DNA of 64,000 nt from Raillietiella orientalis (Eukaryota): NCBI GenBank assembly GCA_036172245.1, contig JAYWIR010000002.1:5270001-5334000 (forward strand), in the 5' to 3' direction. This document shows positions 11,437 through 56,336 of the stretch, piece by piece (within the stretch, counting starts at the first letter, position 1; each line of letters starts with the position of its first letter). Both the position numbers and the translations under genes were made by a program. A model generated the notes under the pieces. That model ran no database searches, was not told the origin of the DNA, and worked only from the letters and a program-made list of their open reading frames with translations.

Positions 11437-12043
11437 GTGGGTTCCGAGTTCCTCCTGCGAGATGACGCTGGTTGGCCTACATTCATTCGGGGTGGCCCTG
11501 GTTGCGGTTCAAACCGGATGCTTCCGATGAGGGCAGTGGGGAATCGACCTCCAGGTCCTTTCAGGAATCAAGAAGTGGGAGTTCTTTCCCTTTGGTTGTG
11601 CAAAGGAGAGCGAACCCCTCAGTGTGGGGGACCTCTCCGGTTCGTTCTGATGGAGTAAGTGTGTGGTCATCTCTCCAGGGAGTGCAGAGAAGCGAGCCGA
11701 TCCCTTCGGGGAACCCCGACTCTCTGAGAAGATTCGGGAGCGTCCCTTCGGGGTTCTCTTCAGAGGAGGAGGAAACAGGAGCGGAGTTCCCTCTGGAGAA
11801 GAAATTCCTACTAGCGGATCCTTTCCGGTTCCCTTTGGGAAAGAAAAATGAAGCGAACTTCCCCGGAGGGTTCCTCCGGAGAGAATAAGGGAGGAGATTC
11901 CCTTCTGGGTTCCTTTCCTTCGGAGACAACCTCGTGATCTCCATTCCGGGGATTCCTCCCCAGGTGTGAGAGGAACAGACTCCGAGCCCTTCCTGGATTC
12001 ATAGGACGGACGTCTCCCGGAGTACCTCCCTATCTTGAAGAAT
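11437..12043 (+). mobile_element. Long SINE-like element, young 5'-truncated copy
   Basis: Nearly identical to 55554-56159 (about 20 differences in about 607 nt, counted by eye). Confidence 0.9.
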
Positions 12044-14869: not shown

Positions 14870-17330
14870 TCCAGGATGCAGGATGCTGGTCAAAATTGTT
14901 CCGGATGTTGCTCGGGCGGGGCCATGTCGTGGAGGCCCTTAAGAAGATTCTCATCCAAAGGATGGCGTCCCTTCCATTTTGGCGTCTTCTTCCTGCGTCC
15001 AGACCTTCATCATTGCGCGAGGACAGCAGAGAACTGCAAGAGACGCGGCTTTAAGCAGTGCGTCAAGTGCGCAAAGAGGCGTTTCAAAATGTTCCTGGGG
15101 CCGCCACCGGGATTCCAAGGGCCTTCGCTAGGCGATCCCAAAGGGGTCTGATGGCAGAATAGTCTGGAAGCAGGTGCAAGAAGGTCTCCTTCTTCCCTCA
15201 TTTGTACCACTCAGCACCCACTCTACCTCGTGTATAGTGATGAAGGCACACTTGGCACGGGATTGCGAGACCAGCAACGTTGACTCCTGTCACTTGACGA
15301 AGAGAGCGCCATCGTTCCAGCTATCTGGAGACCGCTCCACTTCCTCGGAAGGGATCGCGAGCAGCCCTCCTCAGCGTAAAAGTCCTTTGGACAGGATACT
15401 CGGGGTCGCAGCATCCACTAGCTGCCGAGGTGCCCTTTTTGCTGCAATGCATCACGTCACTTCCCACCTTGCTGTCCCTTGCAACCTTTAGGGAGGGCAA
15501 TAGAGTGGTAGTAGGACAGTTGGCCCCACCATGTCCATACCATGAAAACTTGCCGAGAAGTCGGTGAGCAGAGGCAAGGGCACCCTCAGCAGCGGAGGGG
15601 AGGGGAGGAAACAAAATAAAAATGAAAATATAGTTAGAATGACCTTGGGGCAAGGAGGGAAACACGGGGAGGGGTCGTAGCCTGCGGGGGGCTGTCCTGC
15701 GCATCCTCTCGAGGATGCTGGCACTCGAAAGACAGGATGGCCATCCACTGCAGCAGGATATCCCACGGCACATGTGCCATAGCGATGTTCTGGCACTCAA
15801 AAGTCAACCAATGGTAAACACCCTTCGGGCATGTGAAGCACTGCTGCGTACGACACGCAGATGGACATATCTGAAAAGGAAGGATCGCAAGGAGCTTGAA
15901 GGATACACAGACTACTATCCGGTGCCAAAATCCTAGTCGCATCAAGGTCCCATCACCTTTTTCCCTTTCCCTTCCTCTCTTCCCTCAGCCCTTTTCTTCT
16001 CCCACAGGCTTCCCTGAACGGTTTGGCTAACTTTCCCTCCCGCCAGAATGAGAAAATTGTATGCTTATTTATAGATTTTTAAGTATAAAGAGACGTTCCG
16101 GTGCATCCGGGAATACGAAGAGGATGCCGACAATTCCTGCTGCACATTCCTCAGGTTGTGCCATCTCGTCGCCCTCTGCAGACAAAAAAAAAAGATTAGC
16201 TTGAAGTGGATGGCTCCCCTAGAGCAGCCTCCTCCTCTGGCATCGCTTCAGATCGCCACAATCCGCGTAGGCAGCAAAGAGCTGCCAGGGATGAGGTTGG
16301 CAGTAATGAGCTGCGCGCGAAGACGGGATTTCCGTGCGTCCCTGGGGTTGCCGCGTGGAGTCCGAAGACTCGTAGCTGCGGAACATTCCTGCATAGGTCT
16401 CAGGGCAACGCATTTCGAGAGTAGGTGCAGGAGGGATTCGTATGCCCCGCAATCTCTGCAGTTTTGGGGTCCATCTCCTCTTCCCCATCCCCCCCACTCT
16501 CCGGGTTCTAGTGATGTCGGCGGGAGTTTCGTGGTAATAGAGGAAGCGCCAACTCCTGCTGCTTGAGAGGGAGGGTGCAGTTGTTCGGGGACGCTGGAGG
16601 TCTGCCACTCGAGGTCTCCACGGTCGTCCGCTGGGACGTCCTGCAGAAAGATCGAACCGGAACATCCAGATTTAGGCACATCCACATTCAGGAATCCCCC
16701 CCCGGGGGGGGGGGAGATCTTGCGTATTCTGCTCAGGCCGTGAAGGATGCAGAGCCGTGGAACCTATTCTCTTATCCTATTCCCTCTTCTGATTGTTTGC
16801 TGACGCAGCATTCCGGTTGTTGCGGTGGACGATCTTATGCAACGCGCGAGTCCATCACTGGACGAGGGAATGCAGCCCCAGACTGTGCCAGGTACGGGGA
16901 AACGGGAAGCCTTCTTGCAACTGCTGTTGGATCGCGTTGCCCTGAGTGTCCGGGAACGCTCCGTTCAGACCTTGCCACTCCCGACGGGAGATGACAGAGA
17001 GTTCTTGCAGCGCCTCTTCGCGTCCGACTGGATATCGCTTGCAGCTTCCCTTGTGGCCCTGTGCTGCCTCCGTGAGATTGGGCGGCAAGAAGCCGCGCCG
17101 AAGGGGGCCAACCGAAGGGTGAGGTTGTCCCAATCGTCGCCTGCTTCTTCATGAGGAAGGCAACAAGATGGCTACATCTCTGCCAGCAATAAGAGGAAGA
17201 TGGTCAACGTCCTCCAGATGATGCTGAGGACTCCAGGAAAAAATCTGTGGTCCTTTCCCTTCCTGTGATTCCTTCCCCCCAACATTAATTTAAAGTGAAC
17301 TTTTGTTTTTTTTGTGTTTTTATTTACCCC
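14870..17330 (+). mobile_element. L1/Tx1-like LINE relic: ORF1-like part, ORF2 start and ORF2 C-terminus
   Basis: CIVMKAHLARDC (degenerate zinc knuckle, about 15230), SLQIATIRVG (ORF2 start, about 16240), PDCARYGE..QLLLDRVAL..FLQRLF..ISLAASLVALCCLREI (homologous to the 63-kb copy). Confidence 0.65.
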
Positions 17331-28300: not shown

Positions 28301-30948
28301 CATGATGTGTCATTTAAGTAAGTTTCTTTAATAGCTTCTTTATCAGTATACTATGTCTGAGTGCAAAATACAACCTGAAACGTACATATTTATATGCCTA
28401 CTTACTGGAGTTGGAAACATTCTGGAGCGAAATGAGGGAGGAATCATTTCAGGAAGAAGAGAAGTTGGAGGATCATTTCCTTTTTTTTTTTGATTTATCA
28501 GCCATAATGCTAAGGCAAATTGCTCCTGATTCAATTTGCCTGTCTGTGGAATATCACATAGGTTCCTATATTTAATTAGAGAATGCTCAGTGAAAAATAC
28601 TCACCAGATATGTGCTAGTACTGATTGTGAGAGACCAGATTGGATGAACAAATCCCTAATTTCAGTTCCATTCACAAAACCATCTTGGTCAGTGTCTGTT
28701 TGCATGAACAGTATATCATAATTAATCTTTTCATCACTGCTGACTACCCAAGGAAGGGAAAACTATAATCAGGCTGCACTCAATAGAAAACAGTAGTCAT
28801 AATGAGCTCACCTCTGGCTGAGTTTTGGAATGTGAATCAGGAGAAACATGAACTCCATTCACAATTAAACTGGAAGAGCTTACAGTTAAAGGAAGTGGAG
28901 GAATAGGTGGTGGTACTGCAGGATGAGAGACTGATGGCAAAGATGATGAGACTGATGTGATTGCAGTTGACAAAGCAGGCATGGAAGAAGGCATTACGTT
29001 TCGTTTACTGAGTGGCACCATTTCAAGTGGAAGAACATCAGGAAGGGGTATGCTATCCAGTGCTTTGTACACTAAATGCATTCCCTAAAATCAAACACGA
29101 AAAAAGTCACTTTGATGTTAACTGAATTCATCTAACCAGAATAAACTCCTCTCGATCCAAGGATCCATCTTTATCGATGTCAGCAAGGTCCCATATTTTA
29201 CTAAGAGTTTCTAAACTTAAATGTGAGTTTAGCATAACAGGTCGCACCTTTTTAAAACCAAGATTAAATGTGCAGTATGATTCCTTACCTTGGAACCATG
29301 GAGTTTTCCTTGCTCTGGGAGCAAAGATTCAAAGAGCTGCTCATATTTTATCCTTTCATTTGGTGCAATGGGCCATAGAGATTTAGTTGGTGTATTTACA
29401 TAAGAACCATCTTGCACTGGAATCACTTCACCCTGTCCAAAAACACATGAAAAAATATTGCTATCCGACATAATTGAAACAAGGTTCCAAAATGCAAATT
29501 AAATGTGAACAATAATCAAAAACTTTATGTACGAAAATAAAGTTTTAGTTTTAAGGTATCATTGGAAAACAGTTTCACAGCTTTTTGCTTGCATTCTTAT
29601 AAGCTATAAATTGCTCAATAATGCAGATTGCATTTAATTATATGATGGCAGTAAAATTTTATGTACCAAAGTATAATTATTAATCATACATCTTCTTCCA
29701 CAACTGAAAATAACTTAGCAATACTTGTGGAGAATAAACAACGGAGGTAATGAATTAATCTGATGCACATTAAAAATGTTAGCTACAATGATATGCTCAC
29801 ACATAGCTTTTAATTCAAAATGATGCCTAAAGGTGTTGCAAAATGCAAAGCAGAAATCTGACAACAAAAGCTATCTTACAAGTGGAATCAAAGGACTGAA
29901 TTAAGCTTAAGGTGAATGTTTCATTGTTGTATCCATTATAGCTTCCAAAACAGGTATTCTGATTTTCACTACTTTACTAAAAGATGCACATTTTTAATCT
30001 GGAAGTCCATAGAGCAAAGATGGTCTTTTAAGCAAAAATGAACCAGCATAATTTTTTAACGCTTTCATTAATTTCCATTTTTTTAAAATCCAATTTGTTA
30101 ACAAATGACTCCTATTGCTGATGTAAGTTTTCAGGATAATCCAATGAAACACAATTACCAGGAATGCAGGACCTATATCCTCCCTTATGTTTTGGAGACT
30201 GATTGGTTTTCCATTTTGGTAAAATGCTATCAGTTTCAAAGCAATAAAAAGTCCTTTTCTATCTAACCATCCTTTTTGGTCAGAATCTGCCAAATCCCAT
30301 ATCTTGAAAACAGAGGGGATCATTAACATTCAAAGTAACAAACGAAAATTGTACGAACAGCCATGCAACTGAACACAACAAATAAAGAATCATAAAAACA
30401 CGACAATTGGAATTATTTTGTGATTTATTCGTCACAAATGAAGAATTAGCAAAAAAAGGTACCTACTTTACTTAGGACTGCATCATTAAGTCCTGATTTT
30501 TTAAGGAATACTGCTGCATCACGAGCGGATATTTTTCCTGTGCCAGAACTTAGCTGCAAACAAATTGTTCAACGTCTTATACTTTGATTTGCCTAAGAGC
30601 CATACCTGTTTGTAATACGCCTCATACTGCCTTAGATTAATTCCCGCAATCTGAAACCGAAATAACGAAGATAAATTCCAAAGTTAAATTCTGACTACAC
30701 AGTTTTTATGAAACCACACTGAAAACTTCGAAACAACATCGGAACACAGGCAATTGATTATTAATGAGCAACTTTGGCATTTTTTGTTTCAATAAACATG
30801 TAGGTGGATACTAGGTATTTTTAAACATTTAGAACTGCGTACATATTGTAAACATACATTAATGAAATAGATCTTGCATTTTTTTTTTTTCATCACATAC
30901 AAATAAGAATAAAAACAACACCTGAGCATCCGAAAGTAGAGAAGCCAT
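25326..30948 (-). CDS. Eps15: Epidermal growth factor receptor substrate 15 (Eps15/EPS15L1-like) endocytic adaptor, 19 coding exons, about 870 aa
   Basis: Phase-consistent GT-AG exon chain built by hand (5'->3' on minus): 30948-30922, 30650-30606, 30553-30467, 30302-30159, 29432-29289, 29247-29137, 29084-28812, 28762-28605, 28565-28406, 27420-27268, 27219-27130, 27045-26983, 26869-26672, 26622-26437, 26392-26318, 26265-26220, 26173-26109, 26068-25835, 25679-25326. It encodes three EH domains ([56 protein letters not shown]), a long coiled coil, DPF motifs, a Pro-rich [15 protein letters not shown] and a terminal UIM ([17 protein letters not shown]). Confidence 0.95.
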
Positions 30949-33676: not shown

Positions 33677-36600
33677 ATGGACTGGAAATCGACCATGGAT
33701 CGTGGTACGCTGCTGGCACCCACCATCCAGAGATTCCCTTTTCGAAATGTTCAAGTAAGTGGAGATGGAGATGGATTCATCTGGTCTGAAGCAGATTTCT
33801 CTAAAGCTGCTGTGAAAAACCTTCATCATCTTGAAAACTTTCGTTGCCTGACAAAGTTGAATTTGTCTGACAACAACATACAAGGTCAGTAAAGCGTCCT
33901 TGACGCACAATCGCAACATAATGAAACCACAGAGCTGTCTGTTCTTGGACGCATGCCATACCTGAAAGAATTAGATGTTTCTCATAATCAGATCTCCTGC
34001 CTTCTAAATTTTGCTCCACCTATTGCGTTACGGCTCGCCAACTTTTCTCACAACAAAATCAGTATCATTCAGGACATTTCTCACTTCCGGACTCTTGTCA
34101 TTCTAAATCTGAGTTGTATCCTTTTGAAAAGCATGGAGACTTTGGCATACTCGGGTTTTCCGGAAAATCTATCATTCGGAATTTAATTCGAGTATTTCAG
34201 AAATATCTTTGGCGTGATTTCGTCTCTATACCAAAACCATTCTATGAGCTGTGTGTGCGTGTTTTTTTTTTTAGTTCTTTTGGACAATTGAGTTCTTTAA
34301 ACAGCGGGATAGATTTTTCATTGCAGCAGATGCAATGAAAGTTGATGAGCATTTGTTTCATATGCGAACCATGGGATCTTTTTTTTTCTTTATGGAGGCA
34401 TGTGTCTAAGGCATTCGCTTACCAAAACTAACCGGAATGTTAAGAGCAAATTAGCACTTGCAAGAAGATTGAACTTGCAGATCTACGATTCTTAACTGCT
34501 GCTTCGAATGGCTCGCTCTGTTTTTTGTGTACAACTTTGCAGCAGACACGGTGCCGTTTCCTCACTGTTTGTGTATATGAGAGATTTGGCCAGAACCATT
34601 CCTGTTGCCATTCCTCTACCTTCGATAACTGCCGTGAAAGTAAGTTTCTGGTGAAGTCCGCCCTAACTGGCATGAAAAGGTGCAAAGTGATTCACAGGAT
34701 AATGCAGATGAATCTGAAGTTCCTCTTTGGGCCGGATTTTCAAAAAAATCAGGGAAGCATCGGTTTATGTCGGCCCATCTGTTGCTCGACCCATTGTACA
34801 CCCAAACCTCGCACACAAAAAAAAGGAGCTGTGCTTAGTAACTCGGGTTTGGAATGTGATTCGTTCGTTGTGTTTTCCTTTGCATTTTTTTTTTGGGTCC
34901 TTCGAAACAAATGAGATCGTTTTCACCTTCCACAAAGTGTCAAAACGACCGATGCTGAATCATGTCAGAATTGTCCAATCGGGAGTGCCACTTTTTGTGA
35001 AGGGAAGAGAGCGTTTCGCACCGAAATGAAAATTTTGCGACTATTCCACCGCATCTACTTCTCCACTGAGGCCCATGAAATAGAAAAATGATTGGAGATG
35101 AGGGCGGATCGAGATCAAAGTCTCCACGATTCCATAAGCCATGTCTTCAATTGCTTTTCGAATAAAAAGATACAAATGAAATGGGTTGGTTTTACAAAAT
35201 CAATCAGCACCATAGGGTTCAACCAAGTAACTAGAGGAAAACAAACTGATTTTATCTCTCGTGAATGTCTCCTCGTTTTTCTCCATGTTTTTGTTTTTGT
35301 TTTTTTTCATTATTATTAATAAATGCTTAATGCAAGTGAATGGTAGCTTGATGCCATAACTGGCATTCCTAGTTCAGTTAACAGTAATCTTCTGTGCATC
35401 CCGGGTGACATCAAACACGAACAGGTTCGATGTTTTTACGTAAGCTGTGTACGTACGGTTTACATGTGCTCTCATAGAAACCAAGGATGCCAACACCTGT
35501 TTACGTACGTTAAAAACGCTGAAAGTGGCAGTCGTCGATTTTTGCCATCTCCCTATTCTAGGAAGACTTGCTTCTGCCATCTCTCAAGCTTCGGCTTGTC
35601 ATGCTTTAATGATAAGTAAATGAAATGAATTCGTTTTGATTGCAATAACACCAAGCAGATCATAGTTTTTCAGTGTGCCGCTTCTTTTCTTTTCTCCTAG
35701 TGAAAAGAATTGAAACTTTGAAATATTCTCAGTTTGGAACTTATTCCATATGCTTGTGAACCAGGCGAATTCGGAGAAGGACTGTGTTTGTTCAAAGAAT
35801 GGAAAATTATCATACAGAGCTTTTCTAAAATACTTTCGGTTTTCGATTTAGAGTTACCTTCTGATTGCTTCTTTCTGGTCCAAAAAATTTTTTTGTTATT
35901 TGAGAATCTTTGTTAAAAAAAAAAAAAAAAAAAATGGATGCTTCAGATTGTCAAGTGGGTCTTCAGGTGCTGTTTAGGAACTCATTTTAATCAAGACACG
36001 GAGGAAGCTTTGCAATTTACTATGCGGCCGCGCCTGTTACTATCTCAAAGGACTGACAAAAGTTTTAACAAATATTCTGACCATCATTCGTTGTCACGAA
36101 ATGACTGTACATTTTCACAGTAGATTTTGTGTTTAGAACTACTATTAGAAGTTCCCTGCTAACTGTATGAATGCTATGAGCTAGATAATTGATAATTATA
36201 AAGCAATCATTCCTCATTTTGAGTTGATGAACGAGCAATCCCAAAGTGTGAAGAAATAATGGTTGGTCTTCCGCGAAAAAAAAAAAAGCATCAACTGTTT
36301 CCATTATATCAGCTATTCGTCCAGCTATTAGGTATTTCGATCTACGGGTGTCCATGAAATTCACCTCATTTCTGTGTTAAGATTATAAGCGTGGAAGTGT
36401 TCATTTGCTAGCAGTGAGTTGATTTCTGCTCAAATGTAGTTACTTGTCTACATATCCAGAAGTCTAAATGCTTTCCGCAAGGTCCTGTAGCAATCCGTGA
36501 CACGGTCATTTTGTGACACCCTACCAAAGGAAAACGAATGGTTGATCGCGAAAATTTATTTTTCCGACGCTACTTGCAATGGAATTTATAAATCCTCAAT

Positions 36601-39600
36601 GCTTCCGTACTTCATTGCTCATGAAACTCTCCTTTTATCTTTTCCTGGATATCAAAAATGGAGAAAATTGAGCGAAAACAAAAGTTAATACGAAAGCATG
36701 ACTCCTCAGCGTCGAGAGTGATACTGTAAATATACTGTTATCAAAGAGTGGATACATTTAGTGAACAAGGAAGTGAGTAAACATGTTTAAGGAGTCGAGA
36801 TTTAGATTTGAAAGCTGACGAAAGCTTTAATTCCTAGTTTCTTGTATCTTAGGAGACTGATCACGAGGTATTGGATACGAAGATAGATTGCGTTCATGTG
36901 TCGTTGTTACAATTCCGAAGGATCGTCTTTGCTTCGAATGTAATGTTTGCATTTCAGGGGGAAAAGATGAAAAGCTTGACCGCTGACCTGCTCCAGGAAT
37001 AATTTACGTTTAGACTCTTCGAGACTGATCTCCTAACGATACACTTCAGAACCAGCATTTGTCTCTAGGTAACTAAAATAAATCCTGGAAATCGACAATC
37101 TTAGATCAGAATCTTGAATCTAATTTTGAACACATCATCCAAGTGTTGCTTCAGAGAAGTCAACACTTGGAGTCATAATATCATGAATGCGCGGTTGCTA
37201 AGCGCCGAAGGTCTGCTGGATTAAATGGTAACCCTTAGAGCTAGGTGACTTGTCGAGTTCAGACGGATGAATAACAGGAACTTATCATCCAGAAGATCTA
37301 AAGGAAATGCACTTTACAAAAATGCTCAGTTTGCAATGAGAATCAGGAATTCATATAATGACGTTCACGCCATCTTCCTGCAGCACACGCATTTGCACGT
37401 GTACATAGGCAAAATGCGAGATTTTCTGTATGATTTGAGAATAGATGATCAGACACGGAATATTTATTGAGACAGCAGGCTGCATGAGATGTAGCCGTAT
37501 GTTTCATGAAAACTTTTATTTATTTATTTTTTTTTCCAGCATGAACAGACAAGCATTCGTGTCATGGTTGTGATCATTTGTAGAGAAGGATATTAATTAT
37601 ACAAGAAAAAGCTGCACTTCAACATGAATGTCCTGATTTGATGCAAACGTTTTTGGAAAGTAATGCAGCATTCAGGCCTTTCGAAATCGTGTGGAAATAT
37701 CTAAGCGTGCAATATGATGAGGTAGTGGTGGTCCATCAATTTAATAGTACCTCATGCCGACGATTCTCAAGATGGCTCCCTCAGTTGTTTTTAACATGAT
37801 CAATTTTTTTTTTTTAAAAAAAAAAAAACTTCTCCTCTAGTATTTTCGATGAATGATTATTGCTCCATTCTCATTGAACGATTTAGTTAAGTTTTAATGA
37901 CACGATCGAGCGAGGTGAAAAAGAAGGCAAATTAACGCATGCGTTTATTTGGGAGAACGATGAAGCGTGAAAAAAAATTTCATTCTTTTAATTTTCCTCA
38001 CTTGTTTTCACTAATTTCATGTGTATCCTTGACATTTCTACGAAAACCTGGATTTAAAGAGTGTGAAGCTGCCTTTGTACGGTGTACCTTACCCACAATT
38101 TCACCACGAGTCCATATCAGTTTTCACGTACATGCAAGCTATCTGGGCTATCGAAGGACGATTCCCCCTAAATTCGGTTCTTCTCGAAAGAAGTCGAGCT
38201 GAATAAACCAAAAAAAAAAAGCTCATTCGATTTGATTCGCTTTTTGATTTGACCGAGTTTCAAAGTTGGATTGTGGCCTGGCTTCGTTTTGTGAATAAAC
38301 ACAACTGCAGAATGGAAGATTGCATTTTACAATGGAAGCATCTTCTGACCCTCGAAAGACTTCCACTATATAATGTAGAAGAATGTATCTTCAAGTGGAA
38401 GCCCTTAAAAGCGTTTGTTTCATTCCATTTTATTTTATCTTTACCATCAACCACATATTGAAACTCATGCTCGTTTTTTCATCATGATTATGGAATGAAA
38501 TTTTTAAAAAATTTATGCAGTTGCATGATAACGTTTTTAACAAGTCATCAGTGGTTTCTTTCTGAACTGTTTTCAAGTCGATTGCATTTCAAAATGCCTG
38601 AGATAATGATGACGATGATGATAGCGATACTAAAAAGAAGGATAAAATAAACACGAATGATACTGTACTGCTATTTCTCACGAAAGATTAGAGATTGAGC
38701 TCAAGAAAATGCTGTCTTACTCGAAACAGCTCCCTCCCTCTTTGCTCGCCACGTTCAGACCCGGCACTGCACACAAAGCACCTCAGCGTGAGCCGTCGTC
38801 AAGTAAGACTGTTGACACGGTTGCATCATCACTTTGGAAAACATTGCGGAATTTCAAAGCACGATAAGGGGCTTGCATCGGAAATTCAACACAGCTGGTC
38901 AAGCTATGCCCATGCACGACAAGGGTGACACACGTCCGTTAATGGCGCTGTGACTTCACGATCACGACGAAGGATCAGTGTACTGGATGAAAGGAGAAAC
39001 GCGCACACTGCGAAGATCCTGAGGCTTCCCCCTTTGAGAAATGCAGCTACAGTCCTTCGGCATGCACCTTATGTCAATTTGATTAGCATCTGCTGACGCT
39101 CGCATAAATGTCTCCGGCGCTATCGGGGCACGGTGCCTGCTACGTTCTTCTGGATGCTTCAAGTAATGTTAAAGCATCTTGCATGAATCAACGTCCTGGA
39201 AATATTTATTGCATAGGTATAGGCAGTCGTTCCGATTGTTCTGCAGAATGGTTCGCAATGAAACTTTGAAATCCACAGCTTCATATTTTTTTTTTTTTTT
39301 TTCCCAAGCAGAATACACGTTTCACCTCCGTATTCTGAAATTCTGTCACTCTTTGTCTGAAGTGATAGACACATGCATTCCACGCCACTGCCTATGGACT
39401 TGCCAATACGATTCAGATTTGCTAATGTGAATACAATACATTAAGAGTCTCGTATGAATAAACGAGAAAACACAATTTCATCACTACTCTTGTCATCACA
39501 TCATATTCATTCATTCCGTTTTTCACTTGTCAATGCCTTTCTTTTCTTTAATGAATGTTTGACAACATCATACATAGCGTGGATGGGTTAAAAGGCCTGA

Positions 39601-42439
39601 AGTACTTAAAGGAACTGGACCTATCTCACAACCTTTTGGAAAAAGTTGATTGCATTGATGGAGAATCCTTGGCCATCTTAAATCTGGTAAAACCAAACTG
39701 CAAAATTCGAAAATCAATATTTTCGTTGATCCTTTTCTGAAATCAAACTGAGCCCTTTCAGAAAACGTTCCATCTTGGAAAGCTGATATGTTTCGGTGAA
39801 GCGGATGCATCCTTTACTGAAACGTATTTTCGTAATGGGAGCATTTCCAGTTTCGAAATCTTCGGCAGCGTTTTCATGAGACGAAAACGAAATATGCGTA
39901 GTTTCGATTTTTCGTTATTTTTGGTCCAACCGTCATCTTAATCATGAAATTGTGATTTGATCTTAACACGCATAGTTCACGCTGTATTTCAGTTCGATGA
40001 CGCTAAATCGGCGCAGCAAAGACCGACAAATTTCTGTTGGTAATCTGCTGCTAAGTTTTGCCTCTTGGTGATGCGAACTGAAGGAGTTTCTGACTTAATA
40101 AACACGAAGGAGAAAGCGGGTGGCGTAAGAAATGTTCGTGGGAATTGCTTTATTGCATACGAACATCTCACGGATAGAAGGGTCGCTTTGTTATCTCTTT
40201 CTCAATTTTTAAAATCTTGATCGTTTTCTTTCCTATGGCATGTCGAACGAGTCGACCACCAGCATCGACGTTTGTCATCCGTAATTTCACCTTTTTGAAT
40301 TTTTATCTAAATTCTTCCATCTTCTGATTTATGCCTGTCACTTCCATTTCTATAGCGGCAGTTGCTTTCATTTATTCGCTGAGTACACACTCTGTTTGTT
40401 AAATTCAATATCCTACTTTAAGCAGTTTGGCATCGTTTTCTGTTGAGATGACTGCTTTTGACATTCCCGTCGAAGCAGTTCTGCGTTTCTGTTTCCACTT
40501 TGCTTGGAAAGCAGCTGCATGATTACAGAATGAATTGAGCTATCGTGACGGTACTGCCACTCCCTGGGATTTCCAGGAAAAACACGATGCCTTGATGCTC
40601 GTATTTGTGTTTTGCTTCAAAGTAATGAAAACCTCGGTTCTCTACTGAAAATGGAACGTTCTTACGAAAATCCACATCCCTCTAAGAAAGCTCGGTACAG
40701 AGGAGTAAAGACGCTCAGCAAAAAACAGTATGCTTCCACCAATCTCTGAAGCCATTCAGCGAGACCGCATTGGGAATCACAAGCAGCACCTCGAAATTCA
40801 AAGTGCCTATTATGCCAAGTCTTGCACCTTCATTTTCCCCACGTTCGACATGAAGTAGGAAATCGTATCGTAACACAGTGATTCTTTCAATGGGATCCAA
40901 ATAAATCGAAAAGCACGGGAAACGAAAATTTCAGATGATGCAAGCGATGATTCGGTAAAATCGCATTGCAAAATAACAAAAGCTTGTTTGAATCTTATTC
41001 GTTCATCTATTTTTTCCATTTACGCAAAACATTCATACGACATCAGGAAAGTTACCATTTCATGAGGGAATCAACCTGAAACTCATAAAAGAGTTGATGC
41101 GACGCATGTAGAATAAATTGGTAAAAATGTCATTAAAAAAGTTTGCTAATAGATGTCGATACCTTGAATCAGCAGTGAGGATTTTCTTTGTGTTTTTAGT
41201 AGATTTTTTTTTTTCTTTTCATATTTTAAGTTGAATAGTATCTACGATGCCAGCAAAAGTACGCAACCGCCTAACCCCTTGAAAGGTTGATCTTCGAATC
41301 TGCTTTCATCGACTCGTACAGTCCGATCAGAACCAGAGTGCCTACCTCTTTCAAGATGAAGGGCATTCCCGAACTCAAAGATGCAAGCGTCCTTGCAGTT
41401 TGCTCCAAAACGAAGCATTAGTTTGCTAAGTCATTTTGAAGGCTCTTTAATTTTCCGTCCCAAGAAATGCAGCTTTATGTTTTGTTGAGTATGACTGCCA
41501 TGTATGTTTATATGTACATTTGGTTAGCACTTTAATCCCTGGTAAATGTTAGCGTGTTGATGGGTACTTTGAACACAGATTACGAGCGTGTGGATTTACT
41601 CCATGCCCAGCCTTGAAAAGGTGTTTCAGCATTTTTTTTTCTTCTTCTTCTCAATTATCAGAGCAACAACAGCCTACAATCTATTGAAGGGATACAAGCA
41701 ATTTCTTTACTGGAGCACCTGGACCTCAGCTACAACAAATTACAGAAATGCATCTGCTCCATTTTAGCCAACAAGCTGTACTTGAAGGAACTGGATTTGT
41801 CTTGTAAGTGGGAACAAAGCTTTTTCTTTTTGTTTTCCTGATTGAAATTCTGTTACTGCTGTCACAGGCATCAGGCGCAAGCAAAAGATCGAAACCTTTC
41901 ATTTTTCATAACAGGAAGGAAAAAGCAAATCATGAAAAATATGCTTAACTGCTCGGTGCAGCACGCTATCAAAAGATGATGCACACTTTCGATTAAACAC
42001 AAGCTTGCAAACTTCTTGATAATAAGAATTCACAAAACGGACGAAATTCAGTTTTTGTTTTGTAAAAAAGCGTAGTATAATTTTTAATTGTTTTCTACTT
42101 TGACAAATATCCTCCAGCAGGATGCCATTTTTTAAATGGAGAATCGATATTTTTCGGATGGTCGAATTCTGCTTAATAAAAGTCCAAAGTTGCGCAAACT
42201 TCAAAATCCTCGAAAACAAGAAGCGTTTTTATGAAATGCTGTGATCTATTGCAGATAATTTGTTCCCGGGGCTGGACATGCTTTGCTGCTTGAAAACCTC
42301 TCAGCCGGTCCAGAGGATCAACTTGGCAGGAAACGAAATCTGCACGGTTTCTCATCATCGATCCCTGGTTTTGTTCCACATGCCCCAGCTGGAGACGTTG
42401 GACGACGTGCAAACAACACTGAGTGAAAAGGCACGTTGA
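33677..42439 (+). CDS. LRGUK: LRGUK-like leucine-rich repeat protein (LRR and LRRcap portion; 3' end uncertain)
   Basis: Exons 33677-33884, 33933-34115, 39562-39686, 41662-41803, 42255-42430 join in frame into tandem SDS22-type LRRs (LTKLNLSDNNI; MPYLKELDVSHNQI; NFAPPIALRLANFSHNKI; LVILNLSYNII; LKELDLSHNLL; LNLSNNSL; LEHLDLSYNKL; LKELDLSYNL) plus an LRRcap (INLAGNEIC..HRSLVLFHMPQLETLDD). The MPYLxELxxSxN..F.PP..L..A.FSHN.I segment is what I recall from LRGUK. The last recognised exon ends either at a GC donor (AAG|GCACGT, 42431) or at TGA 42437-42439. Confidence 0.75.
34116..39561 (+). other. Putative U12-type (minor spliceosome) intron 2 of the LRGUK-like gene
   Basis: 5' splice site GTATCCTTTT at 34116 matches the U12 consensus RTATCCTTT. 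A branch-point-like TTCTTTAAT lies at 39544-39552, about 10 nt before the only junction (39561/39562) that restores the LRR LNLS-Y-NII. Confidence 0.75.
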
Positions 42440-45400: not shown

Positions 45401-48400
45401 CTCGTCATTCTTCCACCCTTTCATTTCGACTTCCTGCTCACGCATCTCGTGGAATCCGATCCGAGGTTCCATCTCGGGTAAGAACCCTCTTCTTTCGTGG
45501 ACGCTGGTCATCCGGAATGGAAAAATGTAGCGAACGGAGAGTGAATCAGTTCTGTTCCTTGAATTCGAATTTTAGAAGGACCGTCGCATTTTCGAAACGC
45601 ACCTCTTCCAATTGCAGAGCAGTTGCTTTATTCCTTCAGCTTTGGATAGCAACCTAAAGGATTCTAGTTGAAGAGGTGCCCAAACAACGTTCGTATCCTT
45701 ATCGTGGAATCCATCCAAAATCCGTTGCTACGAACCTTTCTCAGCCGAGTCCTTTCAGCCTCCCAAACTGTTACTACAATACTCCAGTCTCTGTACTGTG
45801 TCGAACTCATTGCAACGTACACGGAAATGTAAGATAATGCTGAGCTTGACCTGGAGGGTTCTCTTCCTCTTGAAGTTCCCCTTGATCGTAGTGATAATCT
45901 TCCGACGTCTTGAGGAAGTGAAGCCAAAAAAATTGACCCTTTCCACCCTTCACCAAACTTCCTTGTCCACTTTGAGGACCACCTGCTTCTCAGTTTCGTT
46001 TGTTTGCTTGCTTTCCGTGTTTGTTTGTGATAAAATTGAAATATCCCTAAACTGCATGTATGAAATTGTATTTTTTTTTTTTTTTTTTTTTGGCTTTGAA
46101 AAGGAATGCAAGTTCCTGAACCCATCTTTCGAACATCCACTCTAAAGCATAGTTGTACAAGTAAGCACATTCATCGATTGCCGTTAATTTAAAGATCCCC
46201 CCTCCAAAAAACAAATAGCCATCCTGGAAAATCAAAGCAGGATTTATTTACTCACTTTTTCAAAGGGTTTTCATTGATGGTCCTTGTTTTTTCTGATTTT
46301 CTGATTTCTCATTTCGAAACACTCCGAGGTAAGACACTTGTAAGAGACCCGCGCTCTAAGAGTCGGAAAGAAGGAAAACTGGAAAACTGCCAGATCACGA
46401 ATTAGTGACCATCCCAAACGATACGACTCGACTACAAGTTCATGAAATATCTTTGCATACAATGAATATCTTCATGTAGAATCTCCTTAGACATTATTCA
46501 AGTACCTACGAACCTACCGTTGCCTTTGAAGCTTTTGGATGATTATCATGACCTCACACTAGCCGGTAATCTTCTACAGTGCGTTCCTCATTCTAGTGAA
46601 GCACGTCTGGAAACACAAGGTTGAAACAAGCTGAGGTGATACATGGGGTAAAGATGAAATCAGCGGTGGCGACAGCAGGGACAGGCGAAAGTAACGGGAA
46701 TGAAAGTGCCGTTGAGGCTCAGGAAAGAGGATGAATAAAAAAAATCTTTTCCCATCATTACTTGGGGAGTTGTTCTATCGATGCAGATCCTACAAGAGCA
46801 AATTCCTACTTAATACACGCGTTTCTCATCTTTCCTGCGCGGAATAGCCTTTTGCTTTACCCTGACAAATCGAATTCTGGTAATGGTGTGCTTATCTTCT
46901 AGTCTGCACGGCTCTTGTGTATGTTATCTCGATCTGCTCTCCCTTCGAAATTTGAACGAAAAGCCAGATGAATCTTTTCAGTAGCTTTTTAGGAGTCCTG
47001 TATCCCATGTTCAAACGTTGCAAAAACTGGATGAATGAAGGAATACGACAGAAACGGGCTTGGATGAGTTTTCAAGATCCTTTCAGGAATGGTGCCAACT
47101 GCTCTAAATGAGGCTAAGCTTCCATAATGCAGATTCCCACTTGAGAAAATGAATTGTTCACCAAATAGGCGAGGAAGGCTGCGTGATTCAGTACAAGGGA
47201 AATGGACTGCCAAGGATGTGATATTGATGCCAAAACAAGAGAAATGGCCAGTGTCCCTTGCATGGCCAGACTTCTTGCAAGCAAAGATGCCAGATGGATC
47301 CGTGGATTCGAATCCAGATCTCAATGAGACATCCAGCTGATACGAGAAAGGGAGACATCAAAAAGTGATAGTGAACGTCTTTGCCACTCTTTCCGGTAAT
47401 TTCACTCCGATTTCGTTGGGCCGTCCAAAGGAACTGCTCCTCCCACTGGGATGACATCCTCGCGAACGTTTCCTCACACGGAACTCATGGCTTTTCACTT
47501 CAATGGCTTCTATTTGCGATCATCACTGACGATTGGCCTGCGGCTCCGTTGATCCTCACAAAAATCTGGAGATGAGGGCATCAAGAGGCTTGTGATCTAG
47601 GTGGTTGTTTTCAGAATCCTTTCGCGTCGGAGTTCCAACAACAACAAAAAAAAAAGAGAACCGCACCGGTGACTGGTGACTGGCGATCCAGGAACATCAG
47701 TACTGAGCAGATATGAAATGCCTTTTCGTTGACTCCATGTAGCGTTCGATGGCAATTCTTAATGCAGTTCCACTGGATTAATTTTCTCATTACTCGCAAG
47801 AATCCCTTAATGATGAATGCTTTCAAATCATTCCATCAGGGATTACTCTGAGGCGATCTTCGTATCCCAAACGATCTGTAAAAATTAAAACAGGATGAAG
47901 TAGAGTTCAGTCTCATGTAGGGCTAGAGAAAACCCTGACCCTGTTCGTTTGTGAATCACCGTCCATCGGAAACCCTGGATCTCAGAGTTCCTTAGTGTGG
48001 TTACCCAGAAGCTGAGCAAAAATTCGTGAAAATTGTTGCAGAACGAATCGCGGTAGAAAGAATGTATGAACAAGAATCTCGCCTTCCCAAGGTTCGAAGA
48101 AGTTTTGCTAATTCAGGATCTCGGTTGCAAACTAACCATCGTCTTGCATTCACTCCTTGCTGATTTTTCTATGTATTCAGCGATGATTATCTCGAAAATC
48201 TTCTTTTGTAACTTTTCGATTTGGGCAATTATGTTGGTCTGTGTTAATTTGGCTTTCTTCCTTTATTGCTATCCATAAAGAATTTATTTATATTTTTTTT
48301 TTCTCATCACACTTTGCTATTACTTCGACCGGTGGATCATCACAGACCACTAAAAAAAAAGAACCTTTTTTTACTACAGTTTCGCAAAAATTTGGGCAAT

Positions 48401-51400
48401 GGGATTGTCGTCTGGACATTCTTTGAGTTGTTGTTTGCCCTCTCTAAGCAGTGAAGGCCACTTGCTACTGACGCTTCCCGAGGCATAGCTCATGGAATTT
48501 GCTCTGCCTCCTTACATAAAGTTGTTTAAATTCTTGCACGGAACTGAAGGGTCTCACGGTAGCATGAACAGCGCTGCGGACTATGGAAAACCAAAGGAAA
48601 ACAACACTGGTATATAAACAAGAGCTTCTCCGTTGATTCTTAGGAGAAATACCGCTTTTGCATAGTTTGGTGGCAACTTCGTTGCAAGACGGTCTTTTAC
48701 TTGGCTGAAAACAATTAATCGCAAACAGGAGCTCAAAATGAACTTTAAAAGTTCGAGGTCGCCATACTGTATTGAAATCAAAATGAGAAAACGCAAGAAT
48801 TGTAGGAAAGAGAGGGTTGTATTCAGTAAGATGTCATTCCTCAGTCTTTCACAACTTACGACAGTCCCACAGAACCATTTCCGTGCAGAGAGGAACGGAG
48901 TGACATAATATACGACACACTGTAGGTAAAGGAACAAGACAAGTCCAGTTGAAGAGTCACCGATATTTCACGTCAGAAGGAGAACATTGCTTCCAGAATT
49001 CTCGATCTAACGACGCACGTGAAATTTCTTAGTGGTCATTATCAGTGAGCTTTTCGTTCGTGGACAATTGAACTCAAACAGCATGAACGATGTGTTCGGG
49101 GATTCACAAAGATTATGCTGGAACTTTCCCTCTGGAACGCTACAGAACCAACACAGGAGCGGAAGGAAGGAAGGTACAACTAATGCTTCTCATCCTTATA
49201 TTCAGAATTTGGATTTTTCTTTTTTTCCCTCTCAGACGTAAATTCGGATGATCCGAATGGATTTTACAGAAGAAACAGTCTTCATCGTATCCTCAAGTGA
49301 AGAAGAATAAATGACGGGTGCTCTAATGCTTTCAAAAAGTAGGGAATTCGTTCCGCATTCCATTTTGAGCTCACGCATGCGGCTTGGAACTCTATGGAAC
49401 AAATGCAAGAGGTCTCTACAACACACACTGCAAACGCGTTCCATTAAATCGTCAACGCGTATGGCTTCACTTTGATCTTAGCCAAAAGGCCGAGAAGCGA
49501 TTCCAAGCGTACGGCTTCTAAGGTGAACGCGTTCTTGTCCTTTCCACGGTATTTGCTTCCTATAGGAAGGGTTTCCTTGTTGTTCTTCTGTTCTTAGTTT
49601 TGATGGGTGGGGAAAAAAGTCTTGTTCATAAATGCTTAGTGGTTTCACCGGGAGTTCTGTCTTTTTTTTTTTTTTTTTTTTAAAAAACAAGAGAACTACC
49701 GGTGCTGACGCACCCTGGTTACGCTTGTGCTCAGACCTAGCGTCTCGATAGACGCCTAACGACCATGCTCAAAGTGTAAAGAGAGAGAGAGAATTGATAG
49801 AAGAGGACAAATTGAAATCTGCGGTGAGATATTCGGTCACCTCTCAACAGAACAAGTGGAACCGGAAAGAAAAAAAAAGAAAGAAAGAAAAAGAAAAAAA
49901 AACAGCGGGAGGAGGGGAGAGGGAAACGTCCCAACCGAGACGTATTCCTCCAAGAAGCAACTTGAGTCTTGCTGTTTCGAAACACCACCTCGAGCCGCAA
50001 GGGTCAACACAAAAAAAGTACTCAACAGCGCAGCCGTACAGCACGCGCGCGCACTGCTGTGTTGAGATCGCTGTCGCGAGCGAGCGCCTCCACTTCTGTT
50101 GGGCAAGCGGTGCTCAGAACGCTCTTCCGAACGCAACAGATATAAAAAGTATCGGCATCAATAGGCATTCTGGGGACTTGCCGAGTGGGAATTGGCCGGG
50201 GCTCCTTCGCGCGGGGGGAGGAGGAAGAGAGCCGTTTTCGGGATTTTCGACGGAAAGTCGAGTTGCCAGACGCTCGATGTTAGTCCGCCAGCCAGATGGC
50301 GACATCCCGAGACGCCGGCAGATTGGAAAGTCTGGACAAGAAGTTTGCACGAAGGGTCGTCCGCCCGTAGGATTACGGGGAAGGGGGAGGGAGGGACGCC
50401 TAGCGCATCGTCGCTGCCTTCTCCAAGGCCACGCTCGTTTCGGATACGACGAGCAACCGCAAGCAAAAACCCTCCCAGGAGAAATTGAACGGCAGCGACG
50501 GTGCCTCAGGAGACTGGGATCTCGCGTTCAGGTACCTGGATGGATTTTCTCTGGAGAGAGAGACCACTTCACTCCCGGCAGAGACTCCCGAGATCGGAAC
50601 GAGAACGGGGACGGAGGAGCGTGGAAGAGGAAGCGAACAGTCCGCGAAGACGACCGTGAACAGGATCAGCAGGCTGCCTGGCAACGGAGATGGCATGCAA
50701 ACCCTCGCTGCCTCTTGCACGGCTTGATGACTCGGAAAAAACACATCCAGCGTGATGCTGAGAACCCCTCGGGCTGGGATGGGATGGCCTGCGACGAAGG
50801 AAAGAACCGATTGGAGGGAAACCGGCGTGCGTGCGCGGCCCCACGTGGAGGGAGTCAGCCGTGCACCGCGAAGCGCGCATTCGGAAGACCCTCGGGATGT
50901 GTTTTCGCGAGCGCACGAACCAGCACTCTGGAGCGGGAACCATCGGTCACGGAGAGGAAGAGGGGGGGAACCAAGGAGTGATCCAATCGTGTCGGCGTTG
51001 TGTCACGGACACGGTTCCTAGAGAGGCTGCTGGAGCGGGAACCCTCTTGACCTGGTGCTGCTTTCCTTCTGGCAGCGAACCCCGCGCCTTCGCGCCAGGA
51101 TCCTTTTGACGACCGGCAACCGAATCAGCCTGCTGGGGTCACCTCCAGTCTCCTAGGTCGCTGTTCACGACGAAGAGGCCAATCCCTCCGTCGGAGGCCA
51201 AAGTGCACGTCAGCATCACCGAAGAAGCGTTCCGGGAGATGATGGACGAGGGCGAAATGGTCGTGGCTTGCACGTTGCTCGGCGACCACTACGGACTCGC
51301 GAAGAGCGTCCTGCGCGAAGCTGCGAGGAAGAGGAAGCTGGTGGCCACCTGCCTCCCCGTCGAGGCAGCCCTGCAGCTCAACCTCTGCAGCTTCGAGGCG

Positions 51401-54400
51401 CGGTTTGTGCTGGTCGAGATGGCAGCGACTCCCGCAACACGCGGCGGCGGCCACGATCCGAGAGATCCAGCGCCGCCGCCCCCCGAGGACCCGGAGAAGC
51501 GCTGCCGCCCCTGCTGCCCCCAGCAATGTTCCCAGATCCCTTCTCCGCTCCCTTCCTGGAGCAGCCGCGCCCAGTACCTGGCGTTCGGCACGCTCGAGCA
51601 AGCTTCTCTCCCTGGGGGAACGACGGAGGTGAGTGGTGAGAAGCGCAGCTGCGAGCAACAGCCGCATCAGATCGAGGGAAAGGGAGGGGGAACAAGAAGA
51701 GAGGGAAAATGGGAACAGTCTATGCTAAAAGAGAGAACAGAAGAAGAGGAGAAAGAGAAGGAGGAGGAGAAGGAAGGTTTTTCTAAGCGCCCCCTTCTGC
51801 GGGGGAGCTGCGAAGCGACCGGAAGAAAAGTCCAGGTCGCGTACCCGCCGGTCCGTTTGCGTGGGGGAGGAAGGGGGGGGAGCGCCCAGGATCCGCCACT
51901 TCTTCATTCCCTTGGTAGGGACGAGAGGACATGTCAGCCCCCCCGAAGGGACGGCCTGCTCCACTCCAGGGCGAAAGGAGGTCCCGCAGATGTTTGGAGA
52001 AAACTCTTCTTCCTCTCTGGGCAAGCAGTGCCAGCACGACAGTAGTCGGCCAGGAGCGGCCGTTCCCCGAGCCTCGTTGCCAGGAGCGGGCAACGACGAG
52101 CGATGTTTTCCGGTTGGGCGGAGCGGCGACGCGAACCTCCTGGACTTCGACTGGACCGGCGCGCCGACTTGCTGGGACCATCCCCCGCTTGACCTGGCCA
52201 GGCGTTTGCGTGCGCTCCTTCCTTCCCTTCCTCCCACCTCACCTATGGGGGGAGCGATCGATGAAGAGGGAGCGAGAGGAAGGGGAGGGCGAGACGGAAG
52301 CGCGGCGACGACGACACGCCTCAGGCCTCTGTCCGCTTTCTCTCCTCCTCATCCCCTCCTCCGCCTCTCCATCGACCCCCTCTCTGCTGGCAGCAAATCA
52401 GCGAAGCCGCCCTCTCCCTTTGAGTCTCGAAATCTATCCACGTGAGGTTCGCTCCTGCCGGGAAGAGGAAGAATCCGAAACCACCCTACAACCTCCAATC
52501 TGTGGCCCAAGTGCAGCCACACACAGCAACAACCAGAATCTTCCGTCCATCCCGAACCGTCGCTGGGGGCGAGGGGGAGGTCATTTGACAGCCTCTGCGG
52601 CATGAAGATGGAGCGAGTTCGGCGACACCACCTCGGAGGCGGGTCGTCCTGGCGTTCCCGGAACAGTGCCCGAGCGCGCGCGGTTCGCCGGAACCCCCTT
52701 TTTTTCCCGTCTGGCCGTCGCGCGCTGCCGACTGGGTGTGGGACGAAGTGTAGGCAGGAGGCGGCGAAAATTGGAGGCTGGACAGGAAATCCAGGGCGGA
52801 CGCTTGCCAACTTGCATCAAACGCTTGCAGCTGCTCACTGCGGAGCGGGTAGAAGGGGTGGGAGTGGGGTGGGATGTGGGTGGGGTTCCACGCCTCCGCG
52901 GACGCGAAGCGCATGGCGACGCAAAATGGAATTCGCCGACGCAGGGACGGAGCCGTTCCACTGGCTTCGAGCCCGTGAGCGCGCGCGCGCCGTTGGCGTA
53001 GGGAAGAACCAGATGGAAAGGGGGATGGAAGCGGGGAGATAAGGAGGAGGAGGGGACGGTGACGACGACGGCGACGGCGACGATTGCGAAGAAGCTTCCG
53101 GGTTCTGGGGGGAGCTCTCAAAGGCAGAGAAAGGGGGGTCGGTGGCCACCCGCAGAGTCTTCCTTCCCCCAACCCGGGAGGGTGTCCGGCTGCTGCACCT
53201 CGCCAAGCAGATTCGGGACCGAGTGCGCAAAACGCCCTACCTCTTCCCCGTTAAGGCCTTACTGACCTCGCACCGGTTTCCTACCAGACTGGGCTCCGCG
53301 GAAGCGTGGAGGCTCCCTGTGGCTGCCCGCCAGTTCTGGACCTCGGAAGCGCGCCTTTCGGCCCAGCGGTCCCCGGGTGTGCTACCGACGGGCAGCGTCC
53401 GCCAGACAAAGCGACAGGTAAGAGAAGACAGAGGCAGCGGAAGGGGGAGGGGAGAGAACTCACGCTCCTTGGAAATGAAGTCGCTACCGGTCGCTCCGAA
53501 GTGCGCTAAGGACCGCGTCACAGCCCGCATCTTCACGCGGAACTTCTTCCTCCGTCGGTGGGTAGGCAATGCGTGACGCGATGAGACGCCAAAAAAAAAA
53601 AACGCTCAACTGTCCGAACGTTCTTGACATGTCTTTCCTTTTCTCTCTCTCTCTCTCTCTTTCTAAATGGACCGGATTCATTTTGAGAACGCTCGTTGCG
53701 TCGCCATGGCCGCTTCCGGAACATACTCTCGGGAAACACGCGGGAGAGGAAAGGAACTCTTTCTCGGAATCGCACGCGCATCCATCCACAGTTGGATCCT
53801 CCACGGCGCGGCCACCACCATGAAATGGATGCAGTTTTGCGCCTTCCTCCGAGGAGCCGTCTGTTTCTGAATGGCAAAGAAAAAAAGGAAAAAAAAACGA
53901 TTTTTCGTGGCACCTTCAAAACGAGGAAGGGAGCCGAGTCCATCGGCGTTTCTGCGCATGCCTGAGGGGTGGGAGGGAAGAAGACTTCGAAATTTCATGT
54001 GCTCGAGAGAGATCGTCCCTCTTGAGAAAATTTGCTTTCGAATGGGAAAGGTTGCTGGGGACATTTCAGGGTCTCGTAGGCAGGGCTGGGAGGTACGAAA
54101 TTCGGCTCCGGGCGAAGGACGTCTCCTCCCGAAGTCGAATTCGTACCTCCCCCTCCTCCCTTCTGCAACTTTCCACCTTGCATTGTCGCGCGATCGCTAC
54201 CCGTTGAGGACAGTCAGATTGGATTGCTGCCTGCCCGCCGCAAGGTATTCGGGGAAAGAAGGACCGGTTCTTTGCCGAGGATGCTTCTGAAAGCTTCAGC
54301 CCCACGGTTCCGTCTTCGCGGTGCCGAGTTCAGGGGAGGCCGACGCGCCCAGACAAGGCGAAGCGAAAGTCCTGCACCTTGCGGGAAGACTCTACGTTTG

Positions 54401-55454: not shown

Positions 55455-56336
55455 GACCTCGTCGGAGGCTTTGTAGTTACGGTGGTCTCTGCGCGTGGCA
55501 CCACCAAGTGTCGCGGGGTTCGAATACTCCGACAGAAATCGACTCAGTACGTCGTGGGTTCCGAATCCCTCCTGCGAGATGACGCTGGTTGGCCTACATT
55601 CATTCGGGGTGGCCCTGGTTGCGGTTCAAACCGGATGCTTCCGATGAGGGCAGTGGGGAATCGACCTCCAGGTCCCTTCAGGAATCAAGAAGTGGGAGTT
55701 CTTTCCCTTTGGTTGTGCAAAGGAGAGCGAACCCCTCAGTGTGGGGGACCTCTCCGGTTCGTTCTGATGGAGTAAGTGTGTGGTCATCTCTCCAGGGAGT
55801 GCAGAGAAGCGAGCCGATCACTTCGGGGAACCCCGACTCTCTGAGAAGATTCGGGAGCGTCCCTTCGGGGTTCTCTTCAGAGGAGGAGGAAACAGGAGCG
55901 GAGTTCCCTCTGGAGAAGAAATTCCTACTAGCGGATCCTTTCCGGTTTCCTTTGGCGAAGAAAAATGAAGCGAACTTCCCCGGAGGGTTCCTCCGGAGAG
56001 AATAAGGAAGGAGATTCCCTTCTGGGTTCCTTTCCTTCGGAGACAACCTCGTGATCTCCATTCCGGGAATTCCTCCCTAGGCGTGAGAGGAACAAACTCC
56101 GAGCCCTTTCTGGATTCATAGGACGGAGCCCTCCCGAGGTACCCCCTATCTTGAAGAATTACACGCACCCTCGGGTGGCTTGGAACGTGTGAAAGAGCTG
56201 CGTGAGCCGGCTCCAGGGGCGAGGCGGCTCTTGAGACATTGAGCGAATTAAAAACAAAGAAAGCACGAAAAAAAAAATAAAAAAGCTGGAAGGAAAACGG
56301 CGAAGACAGAAAAAGAAGAACCCATAGGATTGGCAC
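55455..56336 (+). mobile_element. Long tRNA-headed SINE-like element, young full-length copy (about 880 nt)
   Basis: Head with GGGGTTCGAATAC B-box, second B-box-like GTGGGTTCCGAATCCC, body about 97% identical to 11437-12043, A-rich tract, conserved tail, immediately followed by T6 (56337-56342). Confidence 0.88.

Follow-up and report, generated by a model that had tools for sequence, protein, structure and literature searches.

Can an intron that opens with a consensus U12-type 5' splice site and closes with TG be the join between two exons of a gene encoding leucine-rich repeats (LRRs) and a guanylate-kinase-like domain? The question is raised by a stretch of 64,000 nucleotides (nt) from Raillietiella orientalis (GenBank assembly GCA_036172245.1, contig JAYWIR010000002.1, positions 5,270,001 to 5,334,000 of the forward strand), hereafter called the window, the first letter of which is position 1. 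The gene on its + strand resembles LRGUK, and two of its LRR exons, hereafter called exons A and B, are separated by 5446 nt. A sequence-only reading of the window had proposed that this segment, 34116-39561, is a U12-type intron with a GT...TG boundary. The U12 type of the intron and the identity of the gene were upheld, being matched by a mammalian catalogue of minor introns and by homologues that are translated across the donor, and the segment is very probably a U12-type intron. The splicing from GT to TG was carried forward as a conditional claim. The balance of the evidence tips slightly towards the segment being the orthologue of an ancient LRGUK U12-type intron, interrupting, in phase 1, the codon that follows LxL[D/S] in one LRR, and spliced with TG.

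Splice signals at the two ends of the proposed intron

Exon A ends in ..CTG AGT T at position 34115, that is, in phase 1, in agreement with the tendency of minor introns to avoid phase 0. It is followed directly by GTATCCTTTT, which matches the consensus /RTATCCTTT of a U12-type 5' splice site (exon-intron boundaries are marked with a slash throughout). Near the other end of the intron stands TTCTTTAAT, which differs from the TCCTTRAY-like branch-point consensus at a single position (C to T) and contains two candidate branch-point adenines, A39550 and A39551, 11 and 10 nt before G39561, respectively. Downstream of this sequence G is found at 39553, 39557 and 39561 and next at 39577, so that G39561 is the sole G in the usable range. 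The sequence-only reading had described a donor directly after the phase-1 exon end, a branch-point motif about 10 nt upstream of the intron end and a nearest AG, at about 39577, out of usable phase; all three were found, the AG at 39576-39577. The GT...TG ends depart from the GT-AG or AT-AC termini of U12-type introns, a feature which is not strictly defining because GT-TG is a documented rare subtype.

The 3' splice region lies in a zone of 111 nt without AG, the second longest of the 868 AG-to-AG gaps in the AT-rich part of the window between 26 and 42 kilobases (kb), where gaps of at least 110 nt without AG cover 1.5% of the sequence. This is a modest sign that suggests selection against competing AGs around the 3' site.

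Each motif alone is unremarkable. RTATCCTT was found 5 times in the window against 2.86 expected, a count of at least 5 being reached in 15 of 100 shuffles, and TTCCTTRAY with one mismatch was found 84 times against 67.4 expected. The other RTATCCTT matches, at 38023-38030 and 45693-45700 on the + strand and at 15899-15906 and 37586-37593 on the minus strand, were rejected as being at chance level, and no exon or open frame ends at those beginning at 38023, 45693 and 37586. The signal is the placement of the two motifs, which exceeds chance: the donor stands exactly where the LRGUK homology ends and the branch-like motif lies 10-11 nt before the sole junction that restores the frame.

The chance frequency of the single motifs would suit an explanation in which they are accidental matches and either the major spliceosome excises the segment or the exons are connected by another route. 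This is extremely unlikely, since the site coincides with the catalogued mammalian LRGUK U12-type intron and with GTATC read-through in six homologues (see below), no AG is found within 111 nt to serve as a U2-type 3' site, and the donor GTATCC is judged a poor U2-type site beside the GTRAGT consensus. A point in its favour is that 'vestigial' U12-like 5' splice sites in C. elegans are probably spliced by the major spliceosome (Sheth 2006). Inside the intron no Pfam match was obtained from the + strand open reading frames (ORFs) of at least 45 amino acids or from the 28 minus-strand ORFs of at least 50 amino acids that were scanned, and no tandem repeats were found there.

Reading frame across the exon junction

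The downstream frame, ATG TTT GAC AAC ATC.., is closed on its 5' side by the TGA at 39552-39554, and a phase-1 donor can therefore be joined productively only to acceptor positions 39556, 39559 and 39562. Only the start at 39562, with the intron ending in ..TTTG, yields LVILNLS-Y-NIIHSVDGLKGLKY, a repeat of 22 residues like the neighbouring ones. In this join AC completes a TAC codon for Tyr, and the predicted messenger RNA (mRNA) reads ..AGT T/AC AAC.. (LNLS-Y-NII). The earlier claim that restoring the LxLxxNxI pattern requires the intron to end in TG before AC was thereby confirmed for the U12 register. Other joins from the donor at 34116 were rejected, as those to G39553, G39557, AC39563, AC39566 and AG39577 all run into a stop; at AC39563 the stop is formed at the join itself (T/AA), and at the AG at 39576-39577 it follows in T/CG TGG ATG GGT TAA.

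The junction agrees with the proteins to which the gene is related. In an LRGUK profile of 760 nodes, built from 22 LRGUK-like proteins, the alignment of exon A reaches node 213 and that of exon B resumes at node 215, and no hidden exon is needed because the one-node gap is exactly what the split codon supplies. Within 10 residues on either side of the junction the spliced model aligns without gaps with 13 of 13 picked top matches, and with 115 of the 144 aligned homologues overall.

A slide of both ends by 2 nt gives an AT...AC register which was absent from the sequence-only reading. Here exon A would end in ..AGT TGT at 34117, the intron would extend from 34118 to 39563 and the product would be LNLS-C-NII. 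This is the sole one of 66 frame-open canonical pairs that keeps both the 102-amino-acid length and the 22-residue LRR period, and its AC, at 39562-39563, is 12-13 nt from the candidate branch-point adenines, within the optimum given below. Its 5' end, ATCCTTTT, is however out of register with the consensus ATATCCTT, which is what U11 and U6atac pair with. The split codon also disfavours it: Cys is found there in 1 of the 144 aligned homologues and Tyr in 20, and the profile emission at this node is 8-fold lower for Cys (0.0054) than for Tyr (0.043).

The LRGUK minor intron in other species

LRGUK is listed as a minor-intron gene of human and mouse (Lrguk) in the supplement of Olthof et al. 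(2019, BMC Genomics 20:686, supplementary files 1 and 8). The catalogue entries give its 5' splice site as ACA/GTATCCTTT in mouse and ATG/GTATCCTTT in human, its branch-point sequence as TTTTCCTTAAAC in both species, and lengths of 7130 and 9715 nt among the mouse and human entries. No literature was found in which LRGUK is linked with U12-type splicing in the main text, the link being located in this supplement. As far as the catalogue rows extend, the intron of the window resembles the mammalian one in belonging to the same gene family (LRR plus guanylate-kinase-like), in the core of the 5' splice site, GTATCCTTT, and in its kilobase scale. The branch-point sequences are very similar, TTTTCTTTAATG standing here in place of a mammalian form with the consensus CC. 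The 3' termini differ, the TG of the window being set against a mammalian AG that is an assumption, as the catalogue rows do not show this terminus. The codon context of the mammalian intron is consistent with the position and phase found here: a rodent LRGUK (P0085) has LILD-N-NEI at the site aligned to the junction, which fits GAC A/GT exactly, the positional identity being judged from this one rodent protein and the 12-mer strings of the splice sites.

Six of the 178 homologues are translated across the donor as x-I-[L/F], exactly at the junction and in the same position and phase, and end their likeness to LRGUK at this point (four with S-I-L, one with S-I-F and one with C-I-L). The five S-I-[L/F] entries (P0063, P0066, P0072, P0084 and P0100) stem from contigs of ENA, JGI and Logan and share 54-63% identity with P0072. 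The C-I-L entry is from bobwhite quail (P0064, ..LLLD-CILYGN..) and is flagged by its source as unverified or contaminated. S-I-L and C-I-L, the latter being also the window's own read-through, are translations of A/GT ATC CTT and T/GT ATC CTT. Because x-I-[L/F] is what N/GT ATC CTT encodes, the U12 donor is conserved at this position and phase in several species. The G register (N/GTATC) is retained in each of the six read-through homologues, which speaks further against the AT...AC register and leaves it very unlikely. Comparison of intron position and class with LRGUK orthologues was thus in agreement with the U12-type intron of the sequence-only reading, as the catalogued human and mouse intron and the six read-through homologues all matched.

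The intron is not universal. It is absent from all four metagenomic LRGUK-like loci with the same exon (L001-L004), which suggests that some lineages have lost or replaced the minor intron. In L001 (404-889) and L002 (5179-5685) the frame continues as ..LDNNQISxV, and L002 has an apparent 120-nt in-frame intron approximately six codons further downstream. L003 (1848-3722) and L004 are intronless here and GC-rich, with an EF-hand-like N-terminal part. Read-through ORFs on the 3' side were also sought among the stored homologues, for the penultimate base of the intron in other species, and none was usable.

Comparison with known minor introns

The 12-mer at the donor, GTT/GTATCCTTT, is identical to the 5' splice site entered for MTBP in file 1 of Olthof et al. 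(2019), and TTTTCTTTAAT is entered in that catalogue as the branch-point sequence of minor introns of ICE1, GBP5, MSH3 and Fbxo38. Both signals can be regarded as acceptable variants of those used in minor introns. According to passages of the Turunen review, either consensus adenine may be the branch point, the optimum distance from branch point to 3' site is 11-13 nt, and non-canonical termini function, often less efficiently. The distance of 10-11 nt in the window is short, as in other minor introns, and falls at the edge of this optimum.

GT-TG minor introns are rare and have been described before. Sheth (2006, Table 2) lists one, from mouse, together with eight GT-GG introns, and de Wolf (2021) includes GT-TG among the human G-type minor introns. 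Among the conserved minor introns in Table S1 of Larue & Roy (2023), GT-AG accounts for 54,669 in animals (74%), GT-GG for 159 in animals and 115 in plants, GT-CG for 46 and 5, and GT-TG for 29 (0.039% of those in animals) and 15, respectively. The intron described here shares with the GT-TG, GT-GG and GT-CG subtypes a G at both ends, a penultimate base other than A, and a strong U12-type 5' splice site and branch-point sequence. The published cases are transcripts or conserved annotated introns, whereas the present one is built on frame logic and homology. A TG terminus is likewise found in the U2-type introns of GNAS, TSPYL2 and ARS2 (cited in Parada 2014 and Sheth 2006), which have U2-type 5' splice sites and polypyrimidine tracts, whereas the present intron has a U12-type 5' splice site and branch-point sequence and no AG within 111 nt. 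Most non-canonical splice sites (76%) were reported to be involved in alternative splicing (Parada 2014).

The excess of GT-AG over GT-TG among conserved animal minor introns (Larue & Roy 2023) would also favour an ordinary GT-AG U12-type intron in which the T at 39560 stems from a mistake in assembly or base calling or represents a minor allele; a single substitution suffices for this. This explanation is improbable, as the window contains no N here and the site is not a long homopolymer prone to insertions and deletions.

Exons and domains of the LRGUK-like gene

The assignment of the gene as LRGUK-like is supported by its predicted exons (Table 1). All exons placed by the profile are collinear on the + strand, and their N-terminal array of 22-residue LRRs is collinear with that of LRGUK proteins. 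The spliced LRR model (33809-33884, 33933-34115, 39562-39686, 41662-41803 and 42255-42421) has 231 amino acids, of which residues 2-225 align with proteins of approximately 800 amino acids at 29-39% identity. Homologues annotated as 'leucine-rich repeat and guanylate kinase domain-containing protein' are from weevil, crinoid, turtle, birds, rattlesnake and rodents. With exon A as the query, phmmer yielded 707 proteins at E up to 1e-3, and word-based protein searches gave two weak LRR matches for exon A and nothing for the kinase-like ORF. When the 148 + strand ORFs between 30 and 53.5 kb were scanned with Pfam, LRR_4 or LRR_8 was found in three and no domain besides LRR was identified.

The guanylate-kinase-like exon was located with the profile and with tblastn, in which residues ~430-520 of LRGUK-like proteins match 51161-51415, and an Atlas lead (0.89) connects it to guanylate kinase clusters. 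The P-loop part and the remainder of the domain were not located in the window by the LRGUK profile, which matched only nodes 439-524 of it.

Table 1 Predicted features of the LRGUK-like gene and of the intron between exons A and B
Feature	Position	Strand	Basis and remarks
U12-type 5' splice site GTATCCTTTT	34116-34125	+	Read from sequence; perfect consensus
Branch-point-like sequence TTCTTTAAT	39544-39552	+	Candidate branch adenine A39550 or A39551
Proposed U12-type intron, 5446 nt, phase 1, termini GT...TG	34116-39561	+	Motifs, frame, profile alignment
Putative non-canonical 3' terminus TG	39560-39561	+	No G besides G39561 between 39558 and 39576
AG-free zone, 111 nt, across the 3' splice region	39465-39576	+	AG-to-AG gap listing
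LRR exon (..AVKNLHHLENFRCLTKLNLSDNNIQ)	33807-33884	+	LRGUK profile match, E 4.2e-5; 3' end phase 1 (CAA G/gt); 5' boundary uncertain (AG at 33805-33806)
GT-AG (U2-type) intron, 48 nt	33885-33932	+	Frame restored in spliced model
LRR exon A (E-LSVLGRMPYLKELDVSHNQ...LVILNLS and T of the split codon)	33933-34115	+	Pfam LRR_4, E 1.5e-8; profile nodes 148-213, E 1.9e-25
LRR exon B (AC completing TAC, then NIIHSVDGLKGLKYLKELDLSHNLLEKVDCIDGESLAILNL)	39562-39686	+	Pfam LRR_4/LRR_8; profile nodes 215-256, E 1.3e-9
GT-AG intron, phase 0	39687-41661	+	Sequence, spliced model
LRR exon C (SNNSLQSIEG...LKELDLS and T)	41662-41803	+	Pfam LRR, LRGUK profile
U2-type GTAAGT...CAG intron	41804-42254	+	LDLS-T/AT, giving Y-NLF
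LRR C-terminal exon D	42255-42422	+	Profile nodes 308-361, E 8.2e-7; 3' end uncertain (donors after 42422 or 42434)
Guanylate-kinase-like exon	51157-51415	+	Profile nodes 439-524, E 1.4e-11; both boundaries approximate

The introns of the gene vary approximately 100-fold in size, the 48-nt intron being located 183 nt upstream of the 5.4-kb U12-type intron. The U2-type intron between exons C and D splits a later repeat at an LRR position and phase identical to those of the U12-type intron, suggesting either exon duplication or parallel intron positions in the repeat array.

Productive splicing or a decaying gene copy

A number of observations weigh against splicing at TG in an intact gene. At the 3' terminus the penultimate A is absent, and mutants changed at the next-to-last position are said to have been mostly defective in a reporter. 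A 5' G is also reportedly spliced to a 3' G or U, and these results cut both ways for the use of GT-TG. The branch-point sequence departs from the consensus at one C and belongs to a minority, as 'TCTTTAAT' occurs 10 times and 'TCCTTAAC' 243 times in the mouse and human columns of the catalogue of Olthof et al. (2019). The four related loci that were fetched lack the intron and offer no orthologous 3' end for comparison. The integrity of the gene is supported in part: the kinase-like exon has no Pfam match at E up to 0.01, and nothing convincing in the window matches profile nodes 361-438 or 525-760, or nodes 1-147 outside one upstream LRR exon. The best homologue in the databases is 38.8% identical, no close orthologue being found.

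The large profile parts that lack a match in the window, the blindness of Pfam to the kinase domain and the lack of a close orthologue in the databases would also fit a decaying or unproductively spliced gene copy. In such a copy an ancestral AG would have mutated to TG, for which one A-to-T change at 39560 is enough, and the intron would be retained or spliced to the AG at 39576-39577, the TG being a scar. Also in favour of such a copy, the join to that AG leads to TGG ATG GGT TAA and is used by 0 of the 66 frame-preserving canonical pairs. The AG is, however, 26-27 nt from the branch-point adenines, far outside the 11-13 nt optimum, and the reading frames of all five LRR exons and of the kinase-like exon are uninterrupted, with the repeat consensus kept. 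The three other introns that were checked have canonical GT-AG ends, the 5' splice site is of perfect consensus, the branch-point sequence is an accepted variant, and the AG-free zone suggests that the surroundings of the site are still under selection. A decaying copy is thus considered unlikely, and productive use of the TG terminus is plausible, has precedent and is given a slight preference.

Whether the ancient LRGUK minor intron is spliced constitutively at TG in this lineage, with the 3' site set by the distance from the branch point and by the terminal G, is evenly poised. In such splicing U11 and then U6atac would pair with GTATCCTTT, leading to 5' cleavage before G34116, and U12 would pair with TTCTTTAAT, with A39550 or A39551 bulged. 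The second step would use G39561, which alone among the Gs is suitably spaced (10-11 nt downstream), keeping the combination of first G and last G despite a penultimate T instead of A. The resulting mRNA would carry the Tyr codon at the join and encode the restored 22-residue repeat. The intact 5' splice site and branch-point sequence suggest that the organism retains a minor spliceosome; an Rfam search covering the window gave no matches at all, and hence none to the small nuclear RNAs U11, U12, U4atac and U6atac.

Surroundings of the gene in the window

The window is a mosaic in composition, with a GC content of 54-61% at 1-20 kb, 35-40% at 26-42 kb and 50-62% at 50-64 kb. The LRGUK-like gene straddles a jump from 41.5% to 61.5% GC at approximately 50 kb, its LRR exons being AT-rich and its kinase-like exon GC-rich. 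The GC-rich parts contain many long ORFs and no Pfam domains. They also carry a direct repeat of 607 nt, with one copy in each GC-rich flank (11437-12043 and 55554-56159, 96.9% identical and 44.1 kb apart) and weaker related copies near 19.7-20.0 kb and 54.9-55.3 kb; the sequence probably represents a dispersed repetitive element.

An exon that encodes part of an EH domain (Pfam PF12763, E 2.1e-7) was found at approximately 30159-30302 on the minus strand, with AG and GT flanks, indicating a second gene upstream of the LRGUK-like gene and on the opposite strand. A word-based search with this exon gave no close homologue, and the Pfam scan of the 143 long ORFs outside 30-53.5 kb yielded the EH domain only.

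Implications for annotation and for minor-intron splicing

As the literature already contains the LRGUK minor intron as well as minor introns with GT-TG ends, the case is not new in kind and opens no new mechanism; it has its use in annotation, and its interest for splicing biology is modest. A gene predictor limited to GT-AG, GC-AG and AT-AC introns would break or mis-join the LRGUK-like gene. Mis-joining at the LRGUK U12-type intron does happen, since the deposited quail gene model (P0064) is mis-called at this same intron and is translated straight into it.

The intron adds one more probable case to the few GT-TG minor introns on record, and it shows that the LRGUK minor intron is older than the divergence of this organism from mammals. 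If the TG terminus were confirmed, the intron would be a clean natural substrate for the choice of the 3' site by the minor spliceosome in the absence of a penultimate A. Were constitutive splicing at TG true, it would be a natural case with no competing AG within 111 nt, in a lineage that keeps a working minor spliceosome.

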